Assembly (NCBI GenBank): GCA_964490395.1
Contig: CAZBAS010000002.1
Location: 18,566 to 82,565, forward strand
Direction: 5' to 3'
DNA length: 64,000 nt
Source: an uncultured Candidatus Saccharibacteria bacterium
GTDB lineage: Bacteria; Patescibacteriota; Doudnabacteria; UBA920
The translations under genes and the position numbers were made by a program. The first letter of the stretch is position 1. Every line of letters starts with the position of its first letter. This document shows positions 4,778 through 60,741 of the stretch, piece by piece. The notes beneath the pieces were generated by a model. The model had not been told where the DNA came from. It searched no databases and worked only from the letters and a program-made list of their open reading frames with translations.

Positions 4778-6313
4778 TTAGTTGCCCGTACGGCGCGGAG
4801 GACCGCCCCGATCACCGATAGGAGGCCTCCCAGGATTTACCTGCCGCCCCGGAACCGGATGTTGGAAGCCCTGAAACATATCTGGCCTGTCTCCATACTC
4901 TGACATGAACTCGTCATTGTTTAAGACCGGCAAACCCCAAAATTCGATATCGCGCATCAGGAACTCGAAATTCTGTTCTGATGTGCTATAGGGGTCACTT
5001 GGGTCGTCACAAATATTGTGTATGAGCCACGCAGTACACACCTTGTCCTGCGCGCTCCACATATTCATCATGTGGATTTTGTCCGGAGTCATATCACGTG
5101 TCAATGCACGAACTTTGATGCGCCACGGATGTGTACCGCGGCCATTTCCCCCATCGCTGGCATCTCTTTGAGTGTCAAAGAAGCAACCAGCAAGATAGTG
5201 CAAAAACGCGTTCAAATTACCCGACCCAAAAGGAAACGCCATATGATAGATTGGCGGCCCATCTGGCAGATTACAGTTCAGGATTTTGTCCGAGGTATCG
5301 AACTCCCAATTGATCCGTGCTATAGGATCTTTGAGATCTGGCAGCGGGATGTCATACTTGTGCGACACCCATGTGGCTGCTGCGAGCCACTCCGCATATT
5401 CGGCCTGCGTTTCAGATCCATTCAAAATCTTAGACATATCGGGGTGGGTAACCGTGTGGCTTCCAATATTCCCGCCGTCATTATAGATCTCGGCCAAGTC
5501 CGCCCACGAAATTCCACCGGGTTCGTTTGGGTTGCTAACCCAATCAATCCGGGGGAAAACATTCGCACGCCATTTACGAGGCTTCATGTACTTCCGGTAC
5601 ATGACGGGCTGTGAAGCATAACCATCATCGAAATGAATGGCGACACTTCCGCGCACGCGTTGATACTCCTTTACACTAACAGATTGAACTTCAACCGTTC
5701 CCACTGCGCGGATAAGACCAATAAAGATGTGGGCCTGCACGACTGGCTGCGGCACCTGAAATGCTTCCAGATGCACACTGATCTCGTGCCAGTCTGTGCT
5801 CTGAGTCGGATAGTTTGGATAATCAACAATCCATGCAGTCGTACCATCGGCCAAATCTAGTTTGACCTGCATGGTCAGACCCAAGTGCGGACTGTTTGGC
5901 CCATTTGGAGCGTCAGCCGGCGTGTCTTTGACCGGTCCAATTGATCGAACCGAGGCAGTAAAAGTCGTTGGGACGCCGATAGGCTGGTTGAGCACCAGGG
6001 TCTCATATGTTCCGGCGATATACAACTGACTATCAGCCTTAATCGAGAGAACACTTCCGCCGCCCGGCTTAGCTATTCTTGTGTAGCCGCCCCAGCCACC
6101 CCACGTTGGGAAGCCGTGTTGCCAATTCTGCGCCTCGGCACTGCTTGCGCCTGCCTGGGAAAAGTTGCCGTTAATGATCCGCTCGACGCCAGGTAAATAG
6201 CCTGGTGTCGGCTGTTGCTGCGCTGCTACCTTGTGTTGCATGCTGGGCGCGACCATACATGCGAGAAAAAGCAATGCCAGCGTGGCAAAGCCTACTAACT
6301 TTCTACGAGACAT
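4778..6313 (-). CDS. Secreted polysaccharide deacetylase (NodB/CE4 domain) with an N-terminal carbohydrate-binding-like domain.
   Basis: AGGAGG 6 nt upstream of the ATG (MSRRKLVGFATLALLFLAC... signal peptide). CE4 motifs HFDDGY and HTVTHPDM. The N-terminal domain resembles the CBM of 8955..10193 and 6662..7387. Confidence 0.7.
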   Translation of the reverse strand: MSRRKLVGFATLALLFLACMVAPSMQHKVAAQQQPTPGYLPGVERIINGNFSQAGASSAEAQNWQHGFPTWGGWGGYTRIAKPGGGSVLSIKADSQLYIAGTYETLVLNQPIGVPTTFTASVRSIGPVKDTPADAPNGPNSPHLGLTMQVKLDLADGTTAWIVDYPNYPTQSTDWHEISVHLEAFQVPQPVVQAHIFIGLIRAVGTVEVQSVSVKEYQRVRGSVAIHFDDGYASQPVMYRKYMKPRKWRANVFPRIDWVSNPNEPGGISWADLAEIYNDGGNIGSHTVTHPDMSKILNGSETQAEYAEWLAAATWVSHKYDIPLPDLKDPIARINWEFDTSDKILNCNLPDGPPIYHMAFPFGSGNLNAFLHYLAGCFFDTQRDASDGGNGRGTHPWRIKVRALTRDMTPDKIHMMNMWSAQDKVCTAWLIHNICDDPSDPYSTSEQNFEFLMRDIEFWGLPVLNNDEFMSEYGDRPDMFQGFQHPVPGRQVNPGRPPIGDRGGPPRRTGN

Positions 6314-6615
6314 AATTGTCCTCCTGCGTAAACATTGATGTAACAATTCTGCATTTTCCGCTCGATTCGAATCGAGATTTGCATGCTGTAAGCGGAAATG
6401 CCAGGGAGTTACGGTAACCCTGATCTGACTTCAGAAAATTTTGATCATTCCTGAAAAGACCAATAACTATAACATAAAATGCCATTTTTGGGAATACCCA
6501 GCATATATATTATTCCCCATTCTTAAGGGGTGTTTAGCTTCATTTTTACTTGACCATCAGCTCTCTTCCGGAATACTAGACAGTATTCTAGTAAAAATAT
6601 TGCCAATAGATAAAC

Positions 6616-10262: not shown

Positions 10263-11603
10263 CTAGGCACTAGTAGTAATAGTTCGCCGCGTGGGAGACA
10301 CCCAGGCACCTGTGGATTGGACCAAAAAGGTTCGCGGAAACGCCATAAGGAAGGTCCAGGCATCTATGTATTTCATAAAGAGAAACCCAAATCCGTACCA
10401 CAAGTACTGGGGCCTTCTAAATAGTATGGCTATAATAACCGACACTGCGTAGTCTATGGCAAAAAGCAACAACAGCCCTTTGAGTATGTTGTATTCTTGC
10501 GTAAACATGGTGTACAAGTCGTATACCCACGGGCTTACGTGACCAGCACCAAGGGCCGCAACCACTCCAATGAATACGAGTATTGCGGGAAGTAGTATAA
10601 GGCTGATGGTAGAAAGGAGTACTTCAGCAGAATACAAGAGTAGTGCTGCAGAAAATAAGCTCGGCCAAAACCCGTGACGCTTAAGTGTTTGCCAGTACCC
10701 TAGGTGCCAGCGGCGTACCTGCTTGTAGTAATCTCTGAGGTTATCTGGATCTTGTGTATTTCCATAGACACGAGGGTCCATAATAATTTTACCTAAGCGC
10801 TTACGGTGCACCTCAAAGGTCATGTTGTAATCTTCTATCACGAGTCCCCTCGCAGCTATATCTATGCGCGGTAAAATGCTTGCTCGGTATAAACTACAAA
10901 ACCCAGGAATAATAGGTGTTACAGACACGCCAAGCCAAGCCTGCGCATATTTAATAAGATACTGCACCAGAATGTACACACGTTCTCTGTGGGCCAGCAC
11001 AAACATGTTCCAAAAACCAGTGGTTGCTGGCTCCCATAGTGTTTTAGCAAAACCCGCCACTGCGGCTACGCGATCATCTTCCAGATAGGGCAAGGCATAG
11101 TCTAGATAGGTGGGACTAATGATAGTATCGGCATCTACAAACAGTACCCCTGCATAGCGCTGAGCAAGCTCAAAATGGTCTATGCCTTTTTTAAGCGCAC
11201 CTGCTTTACCAGAGTTTTCTGGCTCTAGCACATTCACGCCAAAACTTCGGGCTATGTCTGCGGTCTTGTCTTTAGACCCATCGGAGATGATGTAGATATT
11301 TTGCGGCGGCACTAGCACGAGGAGAGACCGTATAGACTTGGCTATAACCAATTCTTCGTTGTAGGCGGCCATGATAATAGCAACATCATGTTTGGTGAGG
11401 GTGCGCGTAGTAGAACGCTGAGGGACCAAACCTTTCACGGTAATTCGCAGGCCAGGAATGCGCGCAACTATTTCTACAAAAAATCGCACAACACCTATAC
11501 TTCCCCAAATGAGCAGGTTAAAACCGACAAGCGTAATAAGCTCATATATAAATGAGCTTGAATGAAACGGTACAAGTTTTACGAAAAAATCTAAACTAGG
11601 CAT
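10263..11603 (-). CDS. Family 2 processive glycosyltransferase (PgaC/cellulose/chitin-synthase-like) with N- and C-terminal TM segments.
   Basis: GT2 motifs: DVAIIMAAYNEE (DXD region), VLFVDADT and the Q/RxxRW-like RRWHLGYWQ. Multiple TM helices. Overlaps the upstream UXS gene by 8 nt (operon). Confidence 0.8.
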   Translation of the reverse strand: MPSLDFFVKLVPFHSSSFIYELITLVGFNLLIWGSIGVVRFFVEIVARIPGLRITVKGLVPQRSTTRTLTKHDVAIIMAAYNEELVIAKSIRSLLVLVPPQNIYIISDGSKDKTADIARSFGVNVLEPENSGKAGALKKGIDHFELAQRYAGVLFVDADTIISPTYLDYALPYLEDDRVAAVAGFAKTLWEPATTGFWNMFVLAHRERVYILVQYLIKYAQAWLGVSVTPIIPGFCSLYRASILPRIDIAARGLVIEDYNMTFEVHRKRLGKIIMDPRVYGNTQDPDNLRDYYKQVRRWHLGYWQTLKRHGFWPSLFSAALLLYSAEVLLSTISLILLPAILVFIGVVAALGAGHVSPWVYDLYTMFTQEYNILKGLLLLFAIDYAVSVIIAILFRRPQYLWYGFGFLFMKYIDAWTFLMAFPRTFLVQSTGAWVSPTRRTITTSA

Positions 11604-12611: not shown

Positions 12612-12745
12612 AAGGGCCCCATGGTAAATCCATGTAAACATATAAGCATATAAGCATTTAAACAAAAGAGGGACCCCACAGAACGTCTAAATTCTGTTTG
12701 TTTACATGTTTAAATGCTTATATGTTTTAATGTTTACAAAAACCA
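12612..12745. repeat. Long AT-rich imperfect inverted repeat (arms about 30 nt: ...GTAAACATATAAGCATATAAGCATTTAAACAAA / TTTGTTTACATGTTTAAATGCTTATATGTTT).
   Basis: Direct read of the sequence; the arms are reverse complements separated by a loop of about 30 nt. It lies between the UXS start and the small basic ORF. Confidence 0.6.
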
Positions 12746-12883: not shown

Positions 12884-13375
12884 TTTGCTAGTCTCCCGAG
12901 GCATAGACTGATTTTGGTCCATGCTCTTTAATTTTCTACTGCGCGTAAAAATGCGCTAGTAGCAACAGATAATTTCTTTCGGTGTTTCTTTCTAGTACAA
13001 GATATTCTTTGGTGTGGCGTGTTGCTCACACCAACCTTCGATATTTTATTTCAATCAAAGGTAGGATTTCTATTTCTATACTTCTACATGTTATAAAGAG
13101 TGGTAAGTTATTTTTGAAAAATATTTTTCAAATTTTTTCTCGCTCTTTATTTTTTGTAGGTGTCAATGTGCTTACATTAAAAATTATCGCGAAAAAAGTT
13201 TATTGTGTCAAGATACTACTGTTGATAACTTTTTTATAAAAAATATTTTCTACTTAATAAAAATATACAAAAATATATTTTGCAAAATATTTTTTCACTC
13301 GCACACAGTATAAAAGTAATTTGTGAGAATAATATGGCAAGATACGATACCATGTAACATATGGCATGTAACGAG

Positions 13376-13404
13376 TAACAAAAAACCGGACGAAGTCCGG
13401 TTTC
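13376..13404 (-). terminator. Rho-independent terminator of the atp operon.
   Basis: AAACCGGAC-GAAG-GTCCGGTTT followed by TTTTTTT on the - strand, 40 nt downstream of the atpC stop. Confidence 0.75.
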
Positions 13405-13450
13405 AACATGTTATATGTTACATGCCACCTGTTACATGCTTTGCACTCCT

Positions 13451-14004: not shown

Positions 14005-15500
<1,496 letters not shown>

Positions 15501-16595
15501 CTACTGCCCTTCCAACGCTATCTTCCCTGCCGTTATTTCACTCAACTCGGTTGTAATCTTATTTTGCCGCAGTTGGTTAAACGTAAGGGTTAAGTCTGCA
15601 ATTAAGTCTCCAGCACTTTCTGTTGCGTTCTTCATCATGATCATGCGGGCACTGTGTTCGGAGGCATCGCTTTCTAGCAGAGTCTGATAGAGCTGGCTTT
15701 CAAGAACTTTCGGAAGCAGGTGGCTGAGTACTTTTTCTGGAGATGGTTCTATGAGGTAGCCTGCTTGGTTCATACCACCCCTCGCCCCTCCTACCTTAGG
15801 AGGGGAACCGGAGGATACATCTGCGATTGAGGAACCACTATCGGCATTTTTTCCTCCCCTAACATAGGGGAGGCTAGGTGGGGTATCATTTTCGAGGCTC
15901 AGCGGCAACAGCTGCACTGTGCGTGCTTGTTGAGATAGTGTAGAAATAAAATGGTTATAGACTATATAAACGGAATTGTATTCCCCAGATATAAATGAGT
16001 CACTTATGAGACGCGCAACGGGAGCTATTTGGTCAATGGACGGGGTACTTTCGGACTTTGCAAAATCTGCCAGTACTCGGCGACGCATGCGTACAGCCAT
16101 GTCCATGGCTTTGCGACCCATAATAACGTACTCAAGGTTATCACGACCGTGCTGTTCCTCGAGTTTTTTAATCTGAACAAACAAGTTCGAGTTAAAACCG
16201 CCAACAAGTCCTTTATTTGTGGATATAACAACGACTAGTGCTTTTGTCGCAGAAGTGTTTGGTTGCATAAGAGCTGCGTAGTTCGTACCCTCTCTAACTC
16301 CCCCTACTCTAGGGGGAGAACCGGAAGAAACATCCGTGACGTAGGAACCACCCTCGGCATTTATTCCCCTCCTAGAATAGGAGGGGTTAAGGGCGGTAGG
16401 ATTCTCTGACGCCGATACCGTACCCCCCAAAGACCGCACCAAACTAAGCGCAAGCTCGCTATACGTGCGGCTGGCAACAGTTGCAGCCTGACTCTTGCGC
16501 ATTTTGGCAGCACTAATCATCTGCATAGCCCGCGTAACCTTGCGCGTGCTCTTGATAGATTTTATTCGGCGTGTGAGTTCTTGCGTACTTGGCAT
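15501..16595 (-). CDS. atpG: F1 ATP synthase gamma subunit carrying two in-frame insertions of about 35-40 aa derived from a palindromic repeat element.
   Basis: The conserved N-terminus (RRIKSIKSTRKVTRAMQMISAAKMRK) and C-terminus (SEHSARMIMMKNATESAGDLI...ELSEITAG) are present. It is 364 aa against about 290 typical. The extra segments ...SYVTDVSSGSPPRVGGVREG... and ...TPPSLPYVRGGKNADSGSSIADVSSGSPPKVGGARGG... are encoded by the repeat copies at 16299..16396 and 15785..15882. Confidence 0.85.
   Translation of the reverse strand: MPSTQELTRRIKSIKSTRKVTRAMQMISAAKMRKSQAATVASRTYSELALSLVRSLGGTVSASENPTALNPSYSRRGINAEGGSYVTDVSSGSPPRVGGVREGTNYAALMQPNTSATKALVVVISTNKGLVGGFNSNLFVQIKKLEEQHGRDNLEYVIMGRKAMDMAVRMRRRVLADFAKSESTPSIDQIAPVARLISDSFISGEYNSVYIVYNHFISTLSQQARTVQLLPLSLENDTPPSLPYVRGGKNADSGSSIADVSSGSPPKVGGARGGMNQAGYLIEPSPEKVLSHLLPKVLESQLYQTLLESDASEHSARMIMMKNATESAGDLIADLTLTFNQLRQNKITTELSEITAGKIALEGQ
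15785..15882. repeat. Hairpin-pair repeat element (RPE-like), copy A, inserted in-frame within atpG.
   Basis: CCCCTCCTA-CCT-TAGGAGGGG ... CCTCCCCTA-ACA-TAGGGGAGG-CTAGGTGGGG. It aligns with copy B at 16299..16396 and with the half copies at 20636..20675 and 36388..36425. Confidence 0.7.
16299..16396. repeat. Hairpin-pair repeat element (RPE-like), copy B, inserted in-frame within atpG.
   Basis: CTCCCCCTA-CTC-TAGGGGGAG ... CCCCTCCTA-GAA-TAGGAGGGG-TTAAGGGCGG. The shared core ...AACCGGA(G/A)GA(T/A)ACATC...GGAACCAC(T/C)(A/C)TCGGCATTT.. confirms homology with copy A. Confidence 0.7.
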
Positions 16596-16679
16596 AAACA
16601 GTTCGTAAAGTTTATAAAGCTGAAAGTTTATAAAGTCAGAAATTACTTTATGAACTTTAAAAGCATTATAAACTTTTAA
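16596..16679. repeat. AT-rich repeat/inverted-repeat element (GTTTATAAAG/TTCGTAAAG units) at the atpA/atpG junction.
   Basis: ...CGTAAAGTTTATAAAGCTGAAAGTTTATAAAGTCAGAAATTACTTTATGAACTTTAAAAGCATTATAAACTTTT; the same unit type occurs at 60520-60600. Confidence 0.6.
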
Positions 16680-18658: not shown

Positions 18659-18747
18659 AAAACTTTTAAAAAGAATGCCTAATTCCTAATTTCTAATATC
18701 TAATTTCTGAATTCCTAACTTAGAAATTAGGAATTAGAGCTTAGACA
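18659..18747. repeat. AT-rich inverted repeat (CCTAAT/TTCTAAT units) at the atpF/atpH junction.
   Basis: GCCTAATTCCTAATTTCTAATATCTAATTTCTGAATTCCTAACTTAGAAATTAGGAATTAGAGCTTAGACATTAGCGC. Confidence 0.65.
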
Positions 18748-19323: not shown

Positions 19324-19419
19324 AACAGGGAAATTTCTAATTACTAATTCCTAATTTCTAATGCAATACGATTCTGACATTAGAAATTAGATATTAGGCA
19401 TTAGGAATTTTATTCTGTC
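19324..19419. repeat. AT-rich inverted repeat (TTCTAAT units) at the atpE/atpF junction, plus a small hairpin TTATTCTG-TCTTA-CAGAATAA.
   Basis: AATTTCTAATTACTAATTCCTAATTTCTAATG-CAATACGATTCTGA-CATTAGAAATTAGATATTAGGCATTAGGAATT. Confidence 0.65.
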
Positions 19420-20613: not shown

Positions 20614-20934
20614 TTAGGATCCAGATTGATCCGGTCCGGTTCCTCCCCTTTCCAAGGGGAGGCTAGGAGGGGTGGAAGACTTGGTAAGCTCCTTACGGAT
20701 TTGATTTATCCTTCTACCAAGAAAGATAGTGCTGGTTATGAGTGCAAGTAAAATCCCGAGCAATGTATATAGGTGCTCATGGTGCGTACGACCATCGAGC
20801 CAGCGACCGCCTAAACCAAATACTACTACTGGTAGCGCAATAACAAAGCCAAATTCAGTTGCAAACCCTATCATGCGTTGCATGGTAAAAGCATAGGGCC
20901 TGGAATTTTCTATATTTTCGCTCACTTTTTCCAC
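20614..20934 (-). CDS. Small 2-TM protein upstream of atpB (AtpI/AtpZ-like) whose C-terminal tail (TPPSLPLERGGTGPDQSGS*) is encoded by a half copy of the RPE-like repeat.
   Basis: Position and topology resemble atpI. Nucleotides 20636..20675 (CCGGTTCCTCCCCTTTCCAAGGGGAGGCTAGGAGGGGTGG) match the second hairpin of the atpG copies and translate in the same frame as in atpG. Confidence 0.4.
   Translation of the reverse strand: MEKVSENIENSRPYAFTMQRMIGFATEFGFVIALPVVVFGLGGRWLDGRTHHEHLYTLLGILLALITSTIFLGRRINQIRKELTKSSTPPSLPLERGGTGPDQSGS
20636..20675. repeat. Half copy of the RPE-like hairpin element forming the 3' coding end of the atpI-like gene.
   Basis: CCTCCCCTTTCCAAGGGGAGG-CTAGGAGGGG; compare copy A's CCTCCCCTAACATAGGGGAGG-CTAGGTGGGG. 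Confidence 0.6.
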
Positions 20935-21120: not shown

Positions 21121-21196
21121 TGGAGCCGAAATCGGGAATCGAACCCGAGACCTACGCGTTACGAGTGCGTCGCTCTACCAACTGAGCTATTTCGGC
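21121..21196 (-). tRNA. tRNA-Thr (anticodon CGU).
   Basis: Manual fold. Acceptor GCCGAAA/TTTCGGC, D-arm GCTC-AGTTGGTA-GAGC, anticodon loop CTCGTAA (U33, CGT, A37), T-arm TCGGG-TTCGATT-CCCGA, encoded CCA. One A:C mismatch at 31:39. Confidence 0.85.
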
Positions 21197-21762: not shown

Positions 21763-22011
21763 TTATATTGGTAAGAAATGTTTTCTTAGAAATGCTCTAC
21801 CTGAACCTGTTTTGAGATAATACTCGAATTCTTTTGCGGAACGTTCAGTGGTAAAACCTAGGTAGGTTACCAGCTTCCAAGGAGAAAACTTACTTGTGTA
21901 TTTAGACCCTCCCCAGTTGTGGGTTTGAATACGCGAACGCAAATCCTCAGAGTAGCCTACGTAGTGCTCTTTAGGATAATTGACACTCTGAAGTATATAT
22001 ACGTAATACAT
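21763..22011 (-). CDS. Small GIY-YIG nuclease family protein (YhbQ/UPF0213-like).
   Basis: Y-V-Y-I-L ... Y-V-G ... R...H motif pattern (MYYVYILQSVNYPKEHYVGYSEDLRSRIQTHN). 82 aa; paralog of 59651..59908. Confidence 0.7.
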   Translation of the reverse strand: MYYVYILQSVNYPKEHYVGYSEDLRSRIQTHNWGGSKYTSKFSPWKLVTYLGFTTERSAKEFEYYLKTGSGRAFLRKHFLPI

Positions 22012-22120: not shown

Positions 22121-22194
22121 TGGAGCGGGATACGGGAATCGAACCCGTGTCTAAACCTTGGGAAGGTCTCATACTACCATTGTACTAATCCCGC
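22121..22194 (-). tRNA. tRNA-Gly (anticodon CCC).
   Basis: Manual fold. Acceptor GCGGGAT/ATCCCGC, anticodon stem AGACC/GGTTT, loop TTCCCAA, T-arm ACGGG-TTCGATT-CCCGT, U73, CCA encoded. Confidence 0.85.
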
Positions 22195-35338: not shown

Positions 35339-36376
35339 TTACCCTAAGAAATATACAATTATACCAATTATGGCCAACACGGAGGCAAATATCCAAGCGC
35401 GCATAGTCACTTTTGTTTCAGGCCAGCCCAGCGCTTCAAAGTGATGGTGAATGGGAGCAGAGAGAAATATTTTTTTCTTAAATACTTTTTTGGAAAATAT
35501 TTGGAGCACGGTTGTAACTGCTTCCAAGACAAAGACAAAACCAATTATAGGAAGCAGTGCTATGGAGTTAGTAAGGAATGCGACTATGGCAAGGAGTACC
35601 CCCAGCCCCATGGACCCTGTATCCCCCATAAAAAACCGCGCCGGGTATACATTGAACCACAAAAATGCAAGCAAACTTCCTGCCACCACGCCAATGAGTG
35701 CAGCTAAATTCTCTTGCCCGCGCACATACGCTATAAGCCCAAAGGCAAAAAACGCTATAAGTAGCGTACCACCGGCAAGCCCGTCCAGTCCGTCTGTTTG
35801 GTTTACGGCAAAGCTTGTGGCTATAACAACCAGTATGAAAAATGGGATAAACACCCAGCCAAGGTGTAGCGAACCTGCAAATGGTATGTGTACTGCCTCG
35901 AAACCCAGTTTAAAATAAAACCACCATGCACCTATAGCAGCAACAATGGCGTACAAAATAACTTTGAAGCGAAACGGAAACCCGCGCCCCTGGTGACCCA
36001 TGCGGTTTATATCAAGGAGGTCATCGGCAAGGCCTACCACTGCAGCACCCACAAAGGCGCCCAAAGGGAGCAAAGTTTCGCGACGGGTAAGAATGTTGAG
36101 GTTATGAAAAACATCAAGCCCGACTACTCTATCTAAAAACCAAAACGCAGAAATAATAACGCAGGTAATACCCCACACGAGGAGGCCGCCCATGGTCGGA
36201 GTCCCCTTTTTTGCAGCATGCATTTTGGTAAAGAGCGGAGTTTCTTTGGAATCGCGAATGTTTTTACCCAGCTTATATTTATAGAGGAAATACGTTAGCA
36301 GCGGCGTTGTGCCAAGCGCTAAGATGAACGAAATAGAAGTAAGTGAAAATATCTTTGTCAGTACCAAATCTGTCAT
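35339..36376 (-). CDS. mraY: Phospho-N-acetylmuramoyl-pentapeptide transferase.
   Basis: MraY signature motifs (DDLLDIN..., ...VNQTDGLDGLAGG..., FMGDTGS) and 10 TM helices. Confidence 0.9.
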   Translation of the reverse strand: MTDLVLTKIFSLTSISFILALGTTPLLTYFLYKYKLGKNIRDSKETPLFTKMHAAKKGTPTMGGLLVWGITCVIISAFWFLDRVVGLDVFHNLNILTRRETLLPLGAFVGAAVVGLADDLLDINRMGHQGRGFPFRFKVILYAIVAAIGAWWFYFKLGFEAVHIPFAGSLHLGWVFIPFFILVVIATSFAVNQTDGLDGLAGGTLLIAFFAFGLIAYVRGQENLAALIGVVAGSLLAFLWFNVYPARFFMGDTGSMGLGVLLAIVAFLTNSIALLPIIGFVFVLEAVTTVLQIFSKKVFKKKIFLSAPIHHHFEALGWPETKVTMRAWIFASVLAIIGIIVYFLG

Positions 36377-36387
36377 ATATTCTCTTT

Positions 36388-36425
36388 TTCTCCCCCTCCT
36401 TTCTAGGGAGGGGTTAGGGGAGGTG
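36388..36425. repeat. Half copy of the RPE-like hairpin element in the mraY 5' leader.
   Basis: CCCCTCC-TTTCTAG-GGAGGGG-TTAGGGGAGG matches copy B's CCCCTCCTAGAATAGGAGGGGTTAAGGGCGG. In the mraY orientation it supplies a GGAGGGGG SD-like sequence about 18 nt upstream of the ATG. Confidence 0.55.
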
Positions 36426-36634
36426 AAATGTAGAATTTATAATAAATACGGACCTTCGCAACTGCAATTGAGGAATACCTAAATCAATCTTCTCAGAAAT
36501 AACTGTATTAATTATACCACAAACCTTGAAATTCCCCGCTAAACCTGCTAAAGTAACCAGTCGCAAACAAAACCACCCCCATAAAAACCAACCGCGGCCC
36601 CGCCGCACATCCGCTCCCTAAAAAGGAGCAGCCA

Positions 36635-38229: not shown

Positions 38230-38271
38230 AAATTACGGTTTCACTCACAAATGTGAGTGAAACCGTAATTT
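38230..38271. promoter_or_regulatory. 42-nt perfect palindrome abutting the stop codon of the PaaX-like gene.
   Basis: AAATTACGGTTTCACTCACA-AA-TGTGAGTGAAACCGTAATTT; paired with the near-identical palindrome at 38966..39001. Confidence 0.7.
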
Positions 38272-38934
38272 CTATAATAACTTCTTTTGTTTAAAAAATC
38301 GAAGAAGTCTTTCTTTATCCTGAACGTCTAATCTTATAATTTCCATTACAGTGACGAAGTGTGCTACATGATACTGGATAGCAATGTGCCCCAACTCTTT
38401 TCTGGGATCGAACGGATGGATCCATAATGTACGTTGCAAAGAATAGAATTGCAATTCACGCAGTTTGGCTCGAAGCATATCTGCGCCAGCTCGATATTCC
38501 CTCGTAGGTATGTCTGCAGCCACCAACCACCAGGTGCCAGCCCAATGCGCGGGTTTAGTAATTTGATAAATTCCCTTGTTCAAATCGCGGAGACGACCTT
38601 GCCCCTTCTCGGTCAAACGTGCAAGTAACTTGCCTCCTTTTTCTTCAATAATAATTTGTCCTGACTGTTTTAAGTAATATACCGCCCTTACTAACTTTTG
38701 TGCCTGCTCTGAATGTCGTAACGGTCTCTTGTATCTACGTCGCAAAAAAGGCGCTAAAACCTTAAGTGTATTCGGAGCTGTTAACAGCATCCCCACAGCA
38801 CCCGCCATTCCTGCAATGATCAAAACATTCATTGCCACAGTTTTAACGCGCTCAGAAGTAAGCAGGGCCTCAAGATTTTGCAGTGAATCTCCGGGGGCTT
38901 TTCGCACCTGCTTTGTTATAGGCATCCGAACCAT
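38272..38934 (-). CDS. PaaX-family-like winged-helix transcriptional regulator (short form, 220 aa), paralog 1.
   Basis: wHTH region (VRAVYYLKQSGQIIIEEKGGKLLARLTEKGQ) and a PaaX-type central domain (WAGTWWLVAADIPTRE...LRELQFYSLQRTLWIHPF; compare E. coli PaaX WDGKWLLLLSEGLD...GFGALAPSL, from memory). Similar to 44770..45294. Confidence 0.5.
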   Translation of the reverse strand: MVRMPITKQVRKAPGDSLQNLEALLTSERVKTVAMNVLIIAGMAGAVGMLLTAPNTLKVLAPFLRRRYKRPLRHSEQAQKLVRAVYYLKQSGQIIIEEKGGKLLARLTEKGQGRLRDLNKGIYQITKPAHWAGTWWLVAADIPTREYRAGADMLRAKLRELQFYSLQRTLWIHPFDPRKELGHIAIQYHVAHFVTVMEIIRLDVQDKERLLRFFKQKKLL

Positions 38935-38965
38935 AAGACGTTATCTTTTTATATTGTTGCTCAAT

Positions 38966-39001
38966 TTACGATTCCACTCACATTTGTGAGTGGAATCGTA
39001 A
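38966..39001. promoter_or_regulatory. 36-nt perfect palindrome 32 nt upstream of the PaaX-like start codon.
   Basis: TTACGATTCCACTCACA-TT-TGTGAGTGGAATCGTAA. It differs from 38230..38271 only by compensatory changes in both arms (G>A, T>C). Confidence 0.7.
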
Positions 39002-39059
39002 TAATTGTAAATTAGCGTGGTGAGACTTTTACCCACAGATACATGTGCCGATTTTCGAA

Positions 39060-44731: not shown

Positions 44732-44771
44732 AAATACAACGTTTTTCGTGGCCACGAAAAACGTTGTATTT
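44732..44771. promoter_or_regulatory. 40-nt perfect palindrome overlapping the stop codon of the PaaX-like paralog 2.
   Basis: AAATACAACGTTTTTCGTGG|CCACGAAAAACGTTGTATTT. Confidence 0.7.
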
Positions 44772-45294
44772 AGAGATCAAAACGGTGGCGCAAATCTGCA
44801 TCATCGTCGAGCCGCTCAACGGTCAAAAGCCTTATGTACTGGAGTAAACCAGAGGTCTTTAGATACTCCATGGCAGCTGCATTAAACGCATACGGACCTA
44901 TATAAACACTAGCTTGTAGTTTTACAAACGATAGTTCACGCAAGTGATAAACCAAAAGCGAACGCAGGTGCGCTGCGGACTCTGGAATATCAAACACGAG
45001 CACCCTCCATTTTTTGTCCCACTGCCCAACTTGCACCACACCAAACGTGGAAAGCAGGATCCTTACTTTTCCTTGTCTGGTTAAAGTTATAAAGCGCTTA
45101 CCATCTTTATCTCGCCAGCGAATATAGCCTTTTTGGTATAAATAGTACACAGTCCGCTTTAGGTGCCCACTCGTAGTAAGCCCTTCGTGATAAACTTGCT
45201 GGATGCTTCTGCCTTTCATTCCAAATACTAAACACCGCGTATCATGCACGGCAGTCAGTATTTTGTGCGCAAGCTGCGCAGTCTCTGCATGCAT
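44770..45294 (-). CDS. PaaX-family-like winged-helix transcriptional regulator (short form, 174 aa), paralog 2.
   Basis: VYYLYQKGYIRWRDKDGKRFITLTRQGK wHTH and WDKKWRVLVFDIPE...LRELSFVKLQASVYIGPY central domain; paralogous to 38272..38934. Confidence 0.5.
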   Translation of the reverse strand: MHAETAQLAHKILTAVHDTRCLVFGMKGRSIQQVYHEGLTTSGHLKRTVYYLYQKGYIRWRDKDGKRFITLTRQGKVRILLSTFGVVQVGQWDKKWRVLVFDIPESAAHLRSLLVYHLRELSFVKLQASVYIGPYAFNAAAMEYLKTSGLLQYIRLLTVERLDDDADLRHRFDL

Positions 45295-59650: not shown

Positions 59651-59908
59651 CTAAAGTGCCAAATAATTTCTAAGCTGCTTGTGTAAATAAACTCTGCCGG
59701 AGCCGCTCTTCAAAAACTTCTCACGCCCGAGAGCGTCGGCTTTGAGCCAATATGCTTCGTAGTAAATAAGCCTCCACTCCAGTTTTCTTGCTGTAGTGCG
59801 GGCACCAGTTCCGTTATTGTGCCTGGCAACCCGGGCGCGAAGATCGCCTGTTTGTCCAATATACCAACTTTTGTCTTGCTGGCATTCCAGGAGATATACG
59901 TAGTGCAT
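59651..59908 (-). CDS. Small GIY-YIG nuclease family protein (YhbQ/UPF0213-like), paralog 2.
   Basis: MHYVYLLECQQDKSWYIGQTGDLRARVARHN...; same family as 21763..22011. Confidence 0.7.
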   Translation of the reverse strand: MHYVYLLECQQDKSWYIGQTGDLRARVARHNNGTGARTTARKLEWRLIYYEAYWLKADALGREKFLKSGSGRVYLHKQLRNYLAL

Positions 59909-60046: not shown

Positions 60047-60120
60047 TGGCAGGGGGTGTAGGAATCGAACCCACGCGAGCGGTTTTGGAGACCGCCGTAC
60101 TACCACTATACGAACCCCCC
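60047..60120 (-). tRNA. tRNA-Trp (anticodon CCA).
   Basis: Manual fold. Acceptor GGGGGGT/ACCCCCT, anticodon stem GCGGT/ACCGC, loop CTCCAAA, T-arm GTGGG-TTCGATT-CCTAC, G73, CCA encoded. Confidence 0.85.
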
Positions 60121-60199
60121 AAGCCGCCCGGGGGCGGAATGACCAAATTCCTAACGTCCAATTTCATTAGACATTAGGAATTGGAAATTGGATATTTTC

Positions 60200-60367
60200 T
60201 TATTTCGTTTCTCTGTGCAAAGTTTTCTTCTTGCAGTGCTTACAAAACTTTTGGAATTCTAAGCGCTTGCGGTTGTTTGCAGTAGCACTTTTCTTGTTGC
60301 GGCGAGACTGGTAGTTCAAGTGCTTGCACACGGTACACTCGAGGTGTATGAGACGTTCTTGGGACAT
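60200..60367 (-). CDS. rpmG: 50S ribosomal protein L33.
   Basis: 55-aa [58 protein letters not shown] with the L33 Cys4 zinc-ribbon pattern (C..C...C..C) and the classic context next to tRNA-Trp. Below the 60-aa ORF-track threshold, so found manually. Confidence 0.8.
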
Positions 60368-60665: not shown

Positions 60666-60741
60666 TGGAGCCGGCTGTCGGACTCGAACCGACCACCTAC
60701 GGTTTACAAAACCGTTGCTCTACCGGATGAGCTAAGCCGGC
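60666..60741 (-). tRNA. tRNA-Thr (anticodon UGU).
   Basis: Manual fold. Acceptor GCCGGCT/AGCCGGC, D-arm GCTC-ATCCGGTA-GAGC, anticodon stem ACGGT/ACCGT, loop TTTGTAA, T-arm GTCGG-TTCGAGT-CCGAC, CCA encoded. Confidence 0.85.

Follow-up and report, generated by a model that had tools for sequence, protein, structure and literature searches.

Why does a 64-kb stretch of Patescibacteria DNA encode an ATP synthase gamma subunit of 364 amino acids, when the median length of its 120 closest homologues, which come from Patescibacteria-type metagenome assemblies, is 290.5 amino acids, and what are the two extra segments that its gene, atpG, contains? We refer to the whole 64-kb stretch as the window; coordinates are window positions unless a contig is named, and P and L numbers designate proteins and contigs, respectively, from the searches. 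We consider it likely that the extra segments are copies of a selfish, non-autonomous palindromic doublet that is tolerated in permissive loops of the protein and resembles dimers of repetitive extragenic palindromic (REP) sequences, REP doublets forming hairpins (REPINs) and Rickettsia palindromic elements (RPEs). The first-pass annotation of this DNA had already proposed an in-frame, loop-tolerated hairpin repeat with RPE-like behaviour, and this core is supported by the lineage specificity of the segments, their recurrence in other genes and their location in loops. The host gene, the two copies and the hairpins within them are as follows.

15501-16595, minus strand: atpG, ATP synthase F1 gamma subunit (364 aa), host of both full copies; open reading frame (ORF), Pfam and structure match.
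15769-15885, minus strand: element copy A, 117 nt or 39 codons, residues 238-275 (TPPSLPYVRGGKNADSGSSIADVSSGSPPKVGGARGGM), past the last beta-strand and ahead of the C-terminal helix; alignment of copies.
15785-15805: perfect hairpin CCCCTCCTA-CCT-TAGGAGGGG, C-terminal-side module of copy A; hairpin scan.
15853-15873: perfect hairpin CCTCCCCTA-ACA-TAGGGGAGG, N-terminal-side module of copy A; hairpin scan.
16282-16398, minus strand: element copy B, 117 nt or 39 codons, residues 67-104 (TALNPSYSRRGINAEGGSYVTDVSSGSPPRVGGVREGT), immediately past the N-terminal helix; alignment of copies.
16298-16318: perfect hairpin CTCCCCCTA-CTC-TAGGGGGAG, C-terminal-side module of copy B; hairpin scan.
16366-16386: perfect hairpin CCCCTCCTA-GAA-TAGGAGGGG, N-terminal-side module of copy B; hairpin scan.

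The gamma backbone and the host protein are intact around the inserts. The Pfam profile PF00231 covers the atpG product end to end (profile positions 1-285 of 285, E 5e-77), in agreement with the earlier claim that conserved gamma sequence is preserved beside the inserts, and the AlphaFold model of the protein has a normal gamma fold, with TM-scores of 0.72-0.84 (normalised by target length) against solved chains. The oversize noted at first pass, 364 residues against about 290 in a typical gamma, is likewise borne out by the homologue median. The window protein exceeds the shortest close homologues (285 aa) by 79 residues, 78 of which are accounted for by the two 39-codon elements. A pseudogene was ruled out by the synonymous-dominated divergence of the backbone from that of the gamma encoded on contig L003 (97 synonymous and 18 non-synonymous codon pairs, with 74% of the differences at third positions), and an assembly artefact by the presence of identical copies in two independent assemblies (L001 and L002).

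The length of the conserved core, fixed by aligning copies A and B with a third copy found in a miaA gene, is exactly 117 nt, and in the coding sense the core reads TACC...GGTAYGAA. Copies A and B are 73% identical, with weaker similarity extending about 8 nt beyond the core on each side, and the G+C content of the element is 54-55%, compared with 47% in the remaining atpG. Each end of the element is formed by a module of about 40 nt, in which an outer ACCnCnCCTAR segment is followed by a perfect 9+3+9 hairpin (module consensus nnnTACCnCnCCTARCCYCYCCTAnnnTAGGRGRGGAAnn); the two end modules are mutually inverted, identical at 28 of 40 positions, and flank a conserved spacer of about 45 nt. One end-module pair drawn from copies A and B is 79% complementary over about 38-40 nt. 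The coding (mRNA) strand reaches its minimum free energy as a single long hairpin, and the opposite strand folds best into two local hairpins; on both strands the element folds beat those of shuffled sequences by 2.5 to 3.2 standard deviations (z -2.5 to -3.2).

Searched in full, the window yields nine perfect G/C-rich hairpins, three of unrelated sequence and six of the C-rich/G-rich type of the element family (four in atpG and one each at 20642-20662 and 36393-36413). The two conserved spacer blocks have exactly two matches each in the window, compared with shuffled means of 0.33 and 0.01, and a profile of the six modules found no weaker further copies there. These scans confirm the earlier description of two perfect hairpins per copy joined by a conserved spacer. 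The two copies that had been placed at 15785-15882 and 16299-16396, with a size of about 100 nt, are both present, and their size and bounds were corrected to those of the 117-nt core.

Both copies map to the foot of the central stalk, one past the N-terminal helix (site 1) and one ahead of the C-terminal helix (site 2). The predicted local distance difference test score (pLDDT) of the AlphaFold model falls below 50 only at residues 64-101 and 236-277, and these intervals coincide with the breaks at residues 61-96 and 234-277 in alignments to solved gamma subunits, so that the structure mapping proposed at first pass indeed places the inserts in loops. According to the model, the inserts are predicted to be disordered loops rich in Gly, Ser and Pro. 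The alignment of orthologues, also named in the first-pass annotation, identified the segments as lineage-specific: at each site the closest relative (P0002, on L003) has hairpin-forming DNA of another sequence, and in a further relative, P0114, site 1 is no more than a short loop. A conserved domain was rejected as an explanation, given that the inserts are missing from close relatives. In the set of 120 homologues, the median interval at site 1 is 17 residues (below 30 in 99 proteins, at least 30 in 21) and that at site 2 is 21.5 residues (below 30 in 98, at least 30 in 22). Many of the long intervals resemble translations of other palindromic repeats, and all three of the other site-2 inserts that were folded form G/C-rich hairpins. 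Several palindromic families therefore seem, judging from their sequences, to use the same two gamma loops.

Such other hairpin repeats at these loops were observed in Patescibacteria gamma genes on L003 (5288-5440 and 5800-5960), L022 (about 6244-6420) and L023 (about 10595-10715). Proteins with other loop repeats are P0002, P0008, P0012, P0078, P0082, P0085 and P0099, and the peptides concerned include RRGNL..EIASSQSxLAMT, IARSASDEAIS..ITSSALAIT, IPAQAGI..SEAGMT and KGEYRPQGGEGV.

The reading frame and the substitutions within the element indicate what has been maintained in it. Of the six frames, one alone is free of stops in each of the three full copies, and every one of the four genic copies uses it; of the remaining five, four contain one to five stops in every copy. 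Differences between copies are spread evenly over the three codon positions, and the ratios of non-synonymous to synonymous codon pairs in the pairwise comparisons are 17:7, 13:6 and 20:7. The even spread and the excess of non-synonymous pairs argue that the peptide is not conserved as such. For the hairpin, in an alignment of 15 modules, 96% of the cells pair and four of the nine base pairs change on both sides (for example from C-G to U-A); none of 500 shuffles reached the observed pairing, and slid registers came nowhere near it. The substitution patterns thus show that selection acts on the hairpin, through propagation or homogenisation between copies, and not on the peptide.

The first-pass annotation had named as a possible refutation that the repeats might recur nowhere else; the opposite is indicated by miaA, with a full copy, and fmt, with a truncated one. 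Both host proteins, MiaA and Fmt, were found in a word-indexed protein search with concatenated module peptides.

L016 4213-4329, in frame: third full copy, in miaA (protein P0137), read as TPSNSPYPKGKTNADNGSFIADASSGPPPKIGGVRGGM; 117-nt alignment.
L019: truncated copy in fmt of another bacterium (protein P0139), a module with the stretch of spacer next to it, read as DVASILQGVSSGSPPKIGGARGGMN.

Both have the same orientation and frame as the atpG copies. The miaA copy aligns over all 117 nt, with 80% identity to copy A and 69% to copy B, which brings the full copies to three in two different host genes (two in atpG, one in miaA). Copy A is thus nearer to the miaA copy than to copy B, and we regard A and B as separate members of the family that did not arise by a simple intragenic duplication. 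Contig L016 was assembled from DRR235452, DRR274969 and SRR24788853, the same samples that yielded contigs with window proteins, and this co-occurrence suggests that it probably belongs to the genome of the window organism. The window holds six modules, and two or three more lie on this probable second contig (12.5 kb). A second low-complexity insert was observed in the C-terminal part of the same MiaA (L016 4948-4980; SMSGSLPRIGRVSLSDEALAKSEGG); it matches the module weakly (E 0.0035) and contains an ALAKEGG-type motif that is also present in the Fmt protein.

The module is not confined to the window lineage. On a scaffold of 53% G+C, represented by L020 and L021, the same module family occurs with the same two stem variants in arrays of alternating orientation, and about 19 modules flank and separate two domains, HPPK and DUF559 (Vsr-like nuclease) (L020 3755-5458, also in L021). 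This array is open in frame, and as a result the gene caller fuses the two domains into one protein (P0138). The scaffold carries OmpA-type and other genes that are atypical of Patescibacteria, and the DUF559 domain flanked by the arrays might point to the enzyme responsible for moving the module. Furthermore, an exact 27-base module pattern matches five viral contigs with 50-58% G+C. Of the earlier proposal of a repeat family in this lineage, the recurrence stands, in miaA and fmt, and the restriction to the lineage does not, in view of the non-Patescibacteria-like scaffold and the viral contigs. Other searches added little: a profile search with the insert peptides (HMMER, 1.84 billion representatives) gave 16 hits, among which only P0130 and P0135 carry module peptides and most of those inspected were false matches to translated CRISPR repeats (GSPPRVWGIR); a word-indexed protein search with the two 43-aa insert peptides produced no candidates; and Rfam returned only tRNAs together with sub-threshold microRNA-hairpin matches.

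Single modules occur in the window beside the two doublets.

20638-20677, minus strand: solo 40-nt module within the atpI-like gene (20614-20934), towards its 3' end, read as STPPSLPLERGGT; hairpin and profile.
36389-36428, minus strand: solo 40-nt module, intergenic, in the untranslated leader of mraY (35339-36376); hairpin and profile.

Both had been described as half copies and are complete single modules; they would represent either single units or remnants of doublets. With them, five of the six window modules sit inside genes. The module in the atpI-like gene encodes about 13 internal codons in the same frame as the genic element copies, close to the roughly 14 codons assigned to it at first pass. 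The stop codon that had also been attributed to it is native: the last seven codons and the TAA of the gene lie downstream of the module and are common to the relative L003. The counterpart of window positions 20638-20690 on that contig (L003 1020-1075) is a segment of similar length with a partial match to the start of the module (ACCC.T..T.GCCTC) and no hairpin; it may be a decayed copy, in which case the atpI insertion would predate the split of both lineages. The mraY-leader module has a 7-bp stem and a 7-nt loop. Its GGAGG core, previously taken for a Shine-Dalgarno-like block, lies 18 nt upstream of the ATG and within the hairpin stem; a Shine-Dalgarno role was rejected on both grounds and is unlikely.

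Based on these observations, we propose the following hypothetical scenario, in which (i) copies of the element would disperse inside the genome, and modules of the family would pass from one genome to another as well; (ii) mobilisation would be carried out in trans by an enzyme encoded outside the window; (iii) insertions into genes would survive if the frame is kept (117 = 39 x 3), if the element lies in its sole stop-free orientation and frame, and if it falls into a permissive loop, three conditions that can be read from the sequence, to which read-through would be added as a presumed fourth; (iv) surviving inserts would be read through as disordered loops rich in Gly, Ser and Pro, in keeping with their location and predicted disorder; and (v) the hairpins of an element that can adopt one long hairpin or two local ones would persist since propagation of the element, or homogenisation between its copies, needs them.

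Several observations weigh against this interpretation. Copies A and B and the miaA copy are not flanked by a target-site duplication, with the reservation that a flanking TA is indistinguishable from the palindromic TACC...GGTA ends, and no transposase, REP-associated tyrosine transposase (RAYT) or DUF559 protein was found by Pfam among 40 window ORFs, namely those not identifiable by eye; it is thus from the distribution of the copies alone that we infer mobility. The sole ground for assigning L016 to the same genome is its co-occurrence in the samples, and the census of copies covers the 64-kb window plus the 12.5 kb of this probable second contig; Logan contigs with the proteins of the window ends extend the window by only about 1 kb. 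The covariation of the hairpin involves about three stem variants and thus few independent events. Translation of the inserts, whose predicted tryptic peptides include NADSGSSIADVSSGSPPK and GINAEGGSYVTDVSSGSPPR, is presumed from the sequence. Finally, the spacer pattern AACCGGANGANNCATCN{7,11}GGAACCNC yielded only five and six chance matches, without hairpins, in 185,579 representative genomes and in JGI metagenomes, respectively. However, this pattern is too strict, as the miaA copy has GACCGG and GGATCC and would be missed (a looser module pattern is of the type ACCNCNCCTNRCYCYCCCT), which makes the negative scans weak. The window's own two copies are absent from both results, and the source genome is therefore in neither collection.

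Among the alternatives, co-option of the inserts survives best, although we consider it unlikely. The mRNA hairpins might lower gamma output relative to the alpha and beta subunits, or stabilise or process the operon transcript, or the loops might have a regulatory function at the foot of the stalk. Such a role would suit an atp operon rich in structured spacers, but the same element occurs in miaA and fmt, which are free of any such stoichiometry problem. Hairpin DNA is found at the same two loops in many gammas of the Candidate Phyla Radiation (CPR, Patescibacteria), but close relatives of the window organism have other inserts or none. Site 2 corresponds to the position of the chloroplast gamma loop (the chloroplast protein, which has a loop of its own ahead of the C-terminal helix, aligns across it without a break) and the hairpins are upheld by compensatory change; against this, the window inserts are predicted by the model to be disordered and their peptide evolves without codon-position bias.

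Less probable still is a history in which the element was inserted once and reached the second site by intragenic duplication or gene conversion, without an actively spreading family. Both atpG copies do lie in the same frame and between similar flanking residues (E-N-x ahead of the element and N-x-A past it), but the two sites have no common host sequence able to drive conversion, and copy A shares more with the miaA copy than with its neighbour in atpG. The empty spacer-pattern scans of external collections, which would also suit such a history, have to be set against the copies in miaA and fmt and the solo modules elsewhere. That the segments are untranslated, being excised from the mRNA or bypassed by the ribosome with an exact 117-nt loss that keeps the frame, is hardly credible: the length is divisible by three and the whole element folds as one long hairpin that brings its ends together, but four genic copies are stop-free in the used frame with stops in most others, which is expected only if they are read, native codons follow the atpI module in the same frame, and to our knowledge no mechanism for excising such a segment from mRNA is on record in bacteria.

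How far does a selfish palindromic doublet of this kind correspond to known systems? RPEs (Ogata et al. 2000, 2002; summarised in PMC10969869 and PMC3733652) are likewise palindromic repeats of about 100-150 nt that lie in frame in unrelated housekeeping genes of a host-dependent bacterium with a reduced genome, add peptide segments compatible with the fold of the host protein, and in some genes have struck twice. In contrast, the present host belongs to the phylum Patescibacteria, and the CGTC tag described for RPE-4 and RPE-6 (PMC3733652) stands next to the stem in none of the 15 modules of the window family, which in this differs from those two. In anatomy, the element is comparable to REP dimers, REPINs and bacterial interspersed mosaic elements (BIMEs) (PMC3116915, PMC3337134, PMC3733652): these share palindromic units of 35-40 nt with an unpaired lead motif, single units beside doublets, heterodimers with different stems and alternating arrays (here on L020, in another genome), and REP dimers and REPINs share two inverted units with a conserved spacer in an element of about 110 nt foldable as one hairpin. 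REP dimers have also been reported inside genes, sometimes two per gene, in Opitutus terrae, R. conorii and others (Di Nocera et al., PMC3733652).

The 9-bp stem and 3-nt loop fit the 20-40 bp stem-loop unit of REP superfamilies, whereas the stem is preceded by CTAG or CTAA in nine of the 15 modules, by CTCG, TTAA, CTCA, CTTG or CTGG in the rest, and never by GTAG or CGTC; moreover, REPs are mostly extragenic, unlike the predominantly genic window modules. The REPIN type is matched by the inverted end modules, the 117-nt unit conserved in three copies and the long-hairpin fold on the coding strand, but the cognate RAYT, a Y1 transposase, was not found among the 40 window ORFs scanned. Bacterial MITEs (miniature transposable elements with inverted repeats), such as Correia/NEMIS, ERIC, Nezha and the Anabaena MITEs (PMC10969869), are also small (below about 300 bp, here 117 nt) and non-coding, with terminal inverted repeats (here ends of about 38-40 nt) and in-frame extension of ORFs. 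Unlike MITEs, copies A and B and the miaA copy lack a consistent flanking direct repeat, and no insertion sequence gene that could serve as a parent was detected by Pfam among the same 40 ORFs.

The redox loop of chloroplast and cyanobacterial gammas and the mycobacterial gamma loop are extra segments at the stalk foot that precede the C-terminal helix, as is one of the window inserts. These loops are conserved in their clades and have regulatory roles. The window inserts, in contrast, are common to miaA and fmt, missing in close relatives and predicted to be disordered. Our literature search found no report in which REP, MITE or palindromic elements were linked to Patescibacteria or gamma subunits. 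The behaviour, as in RPEs and intragenic REP repeats, is thus already known, and for this particular repeat we found no description.

In-frame invasion of essential genes by palindromic elements was first thought to be peculiar to Rickettsia, and was later also recognised for REP dimers of a few other phyla. The present finding extends it to Patescibacteria, a host-dependent group with small genomes, where the rotor subunit of the ATP synthase has been struck twice, and it lends support to the idea that, in reduced genomes, selection is weak enough for selfish hairpins to become established in protein loops. It offers a concrete explanation for length variation and low-complexity loops in Patescibacteria proteins; about one-sixth of the gamma homologues carry a long insert at either loop. 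For annotation, it is a warning that such segments are repeat DNA and not domains. The 40-nt unit shared with distant genomes and phage contigs provides a handle for finding the enzyme that moves it.

A broader hypothesis, which we offer as speculative and regard as rather doubtful, is that the CTAR-led, C-rich 40-nt hairpin unit represents a phylum-crossing REP-like superfamily (in Patescibacteria, the diderm-looking 53% G+C scaffold and viral contigs) that is moved by an enzyme other than a classical RAYT and that, with other palindromic families, may invade permissive loops in essential proteins in a systematic way throughout Patescibacteria. If this were true, selfish hairpin DNA would be a main source of protein-length variation in their reduced genomes.

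A second, unrelated class of structured repeat is present in this genome. Long AT-rich hairpins, with stems of about 20-40 bp and words of about 8-nt period such as TCTAATNT, occupy most atp spacers and some nearby ones (15406-15500, 16596-16679, 18659-18747, 19324-19419, 12620-12745 and 13340-13450), and the RNA folds of these six regions are 4.6 to 8.7 standard deviations stabler than those of shuffled sequences. At 60152-60204 the family is known as a repeat match only. L003 has AT-rich hairpins in most of the same spacers.

Apart from these, a 40-nt near-perfect palindrome (ATTACGGTTTCACTCACAAATGTGAGTGAAACCGTAATTT) is present in two copies (38232-38271 and 38963-39002) that bracket a small PaaX_M (Cas2-like) gene at 38272-38934; another PaaX_M gene is found at 44770-45294. 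Small GIY-YIG nuclease ORFs that stand alone occur twice, at 21763-22011 (82 aa, by Pfam) and 59651-59908 (85 aa, judged by sequence), each adjoining tRNA genes (21124-21196, 22124-22194, 60050-60120 and 60669-60741). Extra small genes also occur among the atp genes of other Patescibacteria, with two PDDEXK_3 genes in L022 (5129-5575 and 8507-8908) and a HicB-like gene in L023 (9532-9780), and the miaA contig L016 carries two 23S_rRNA_IVP genes amid housekeeping genes.

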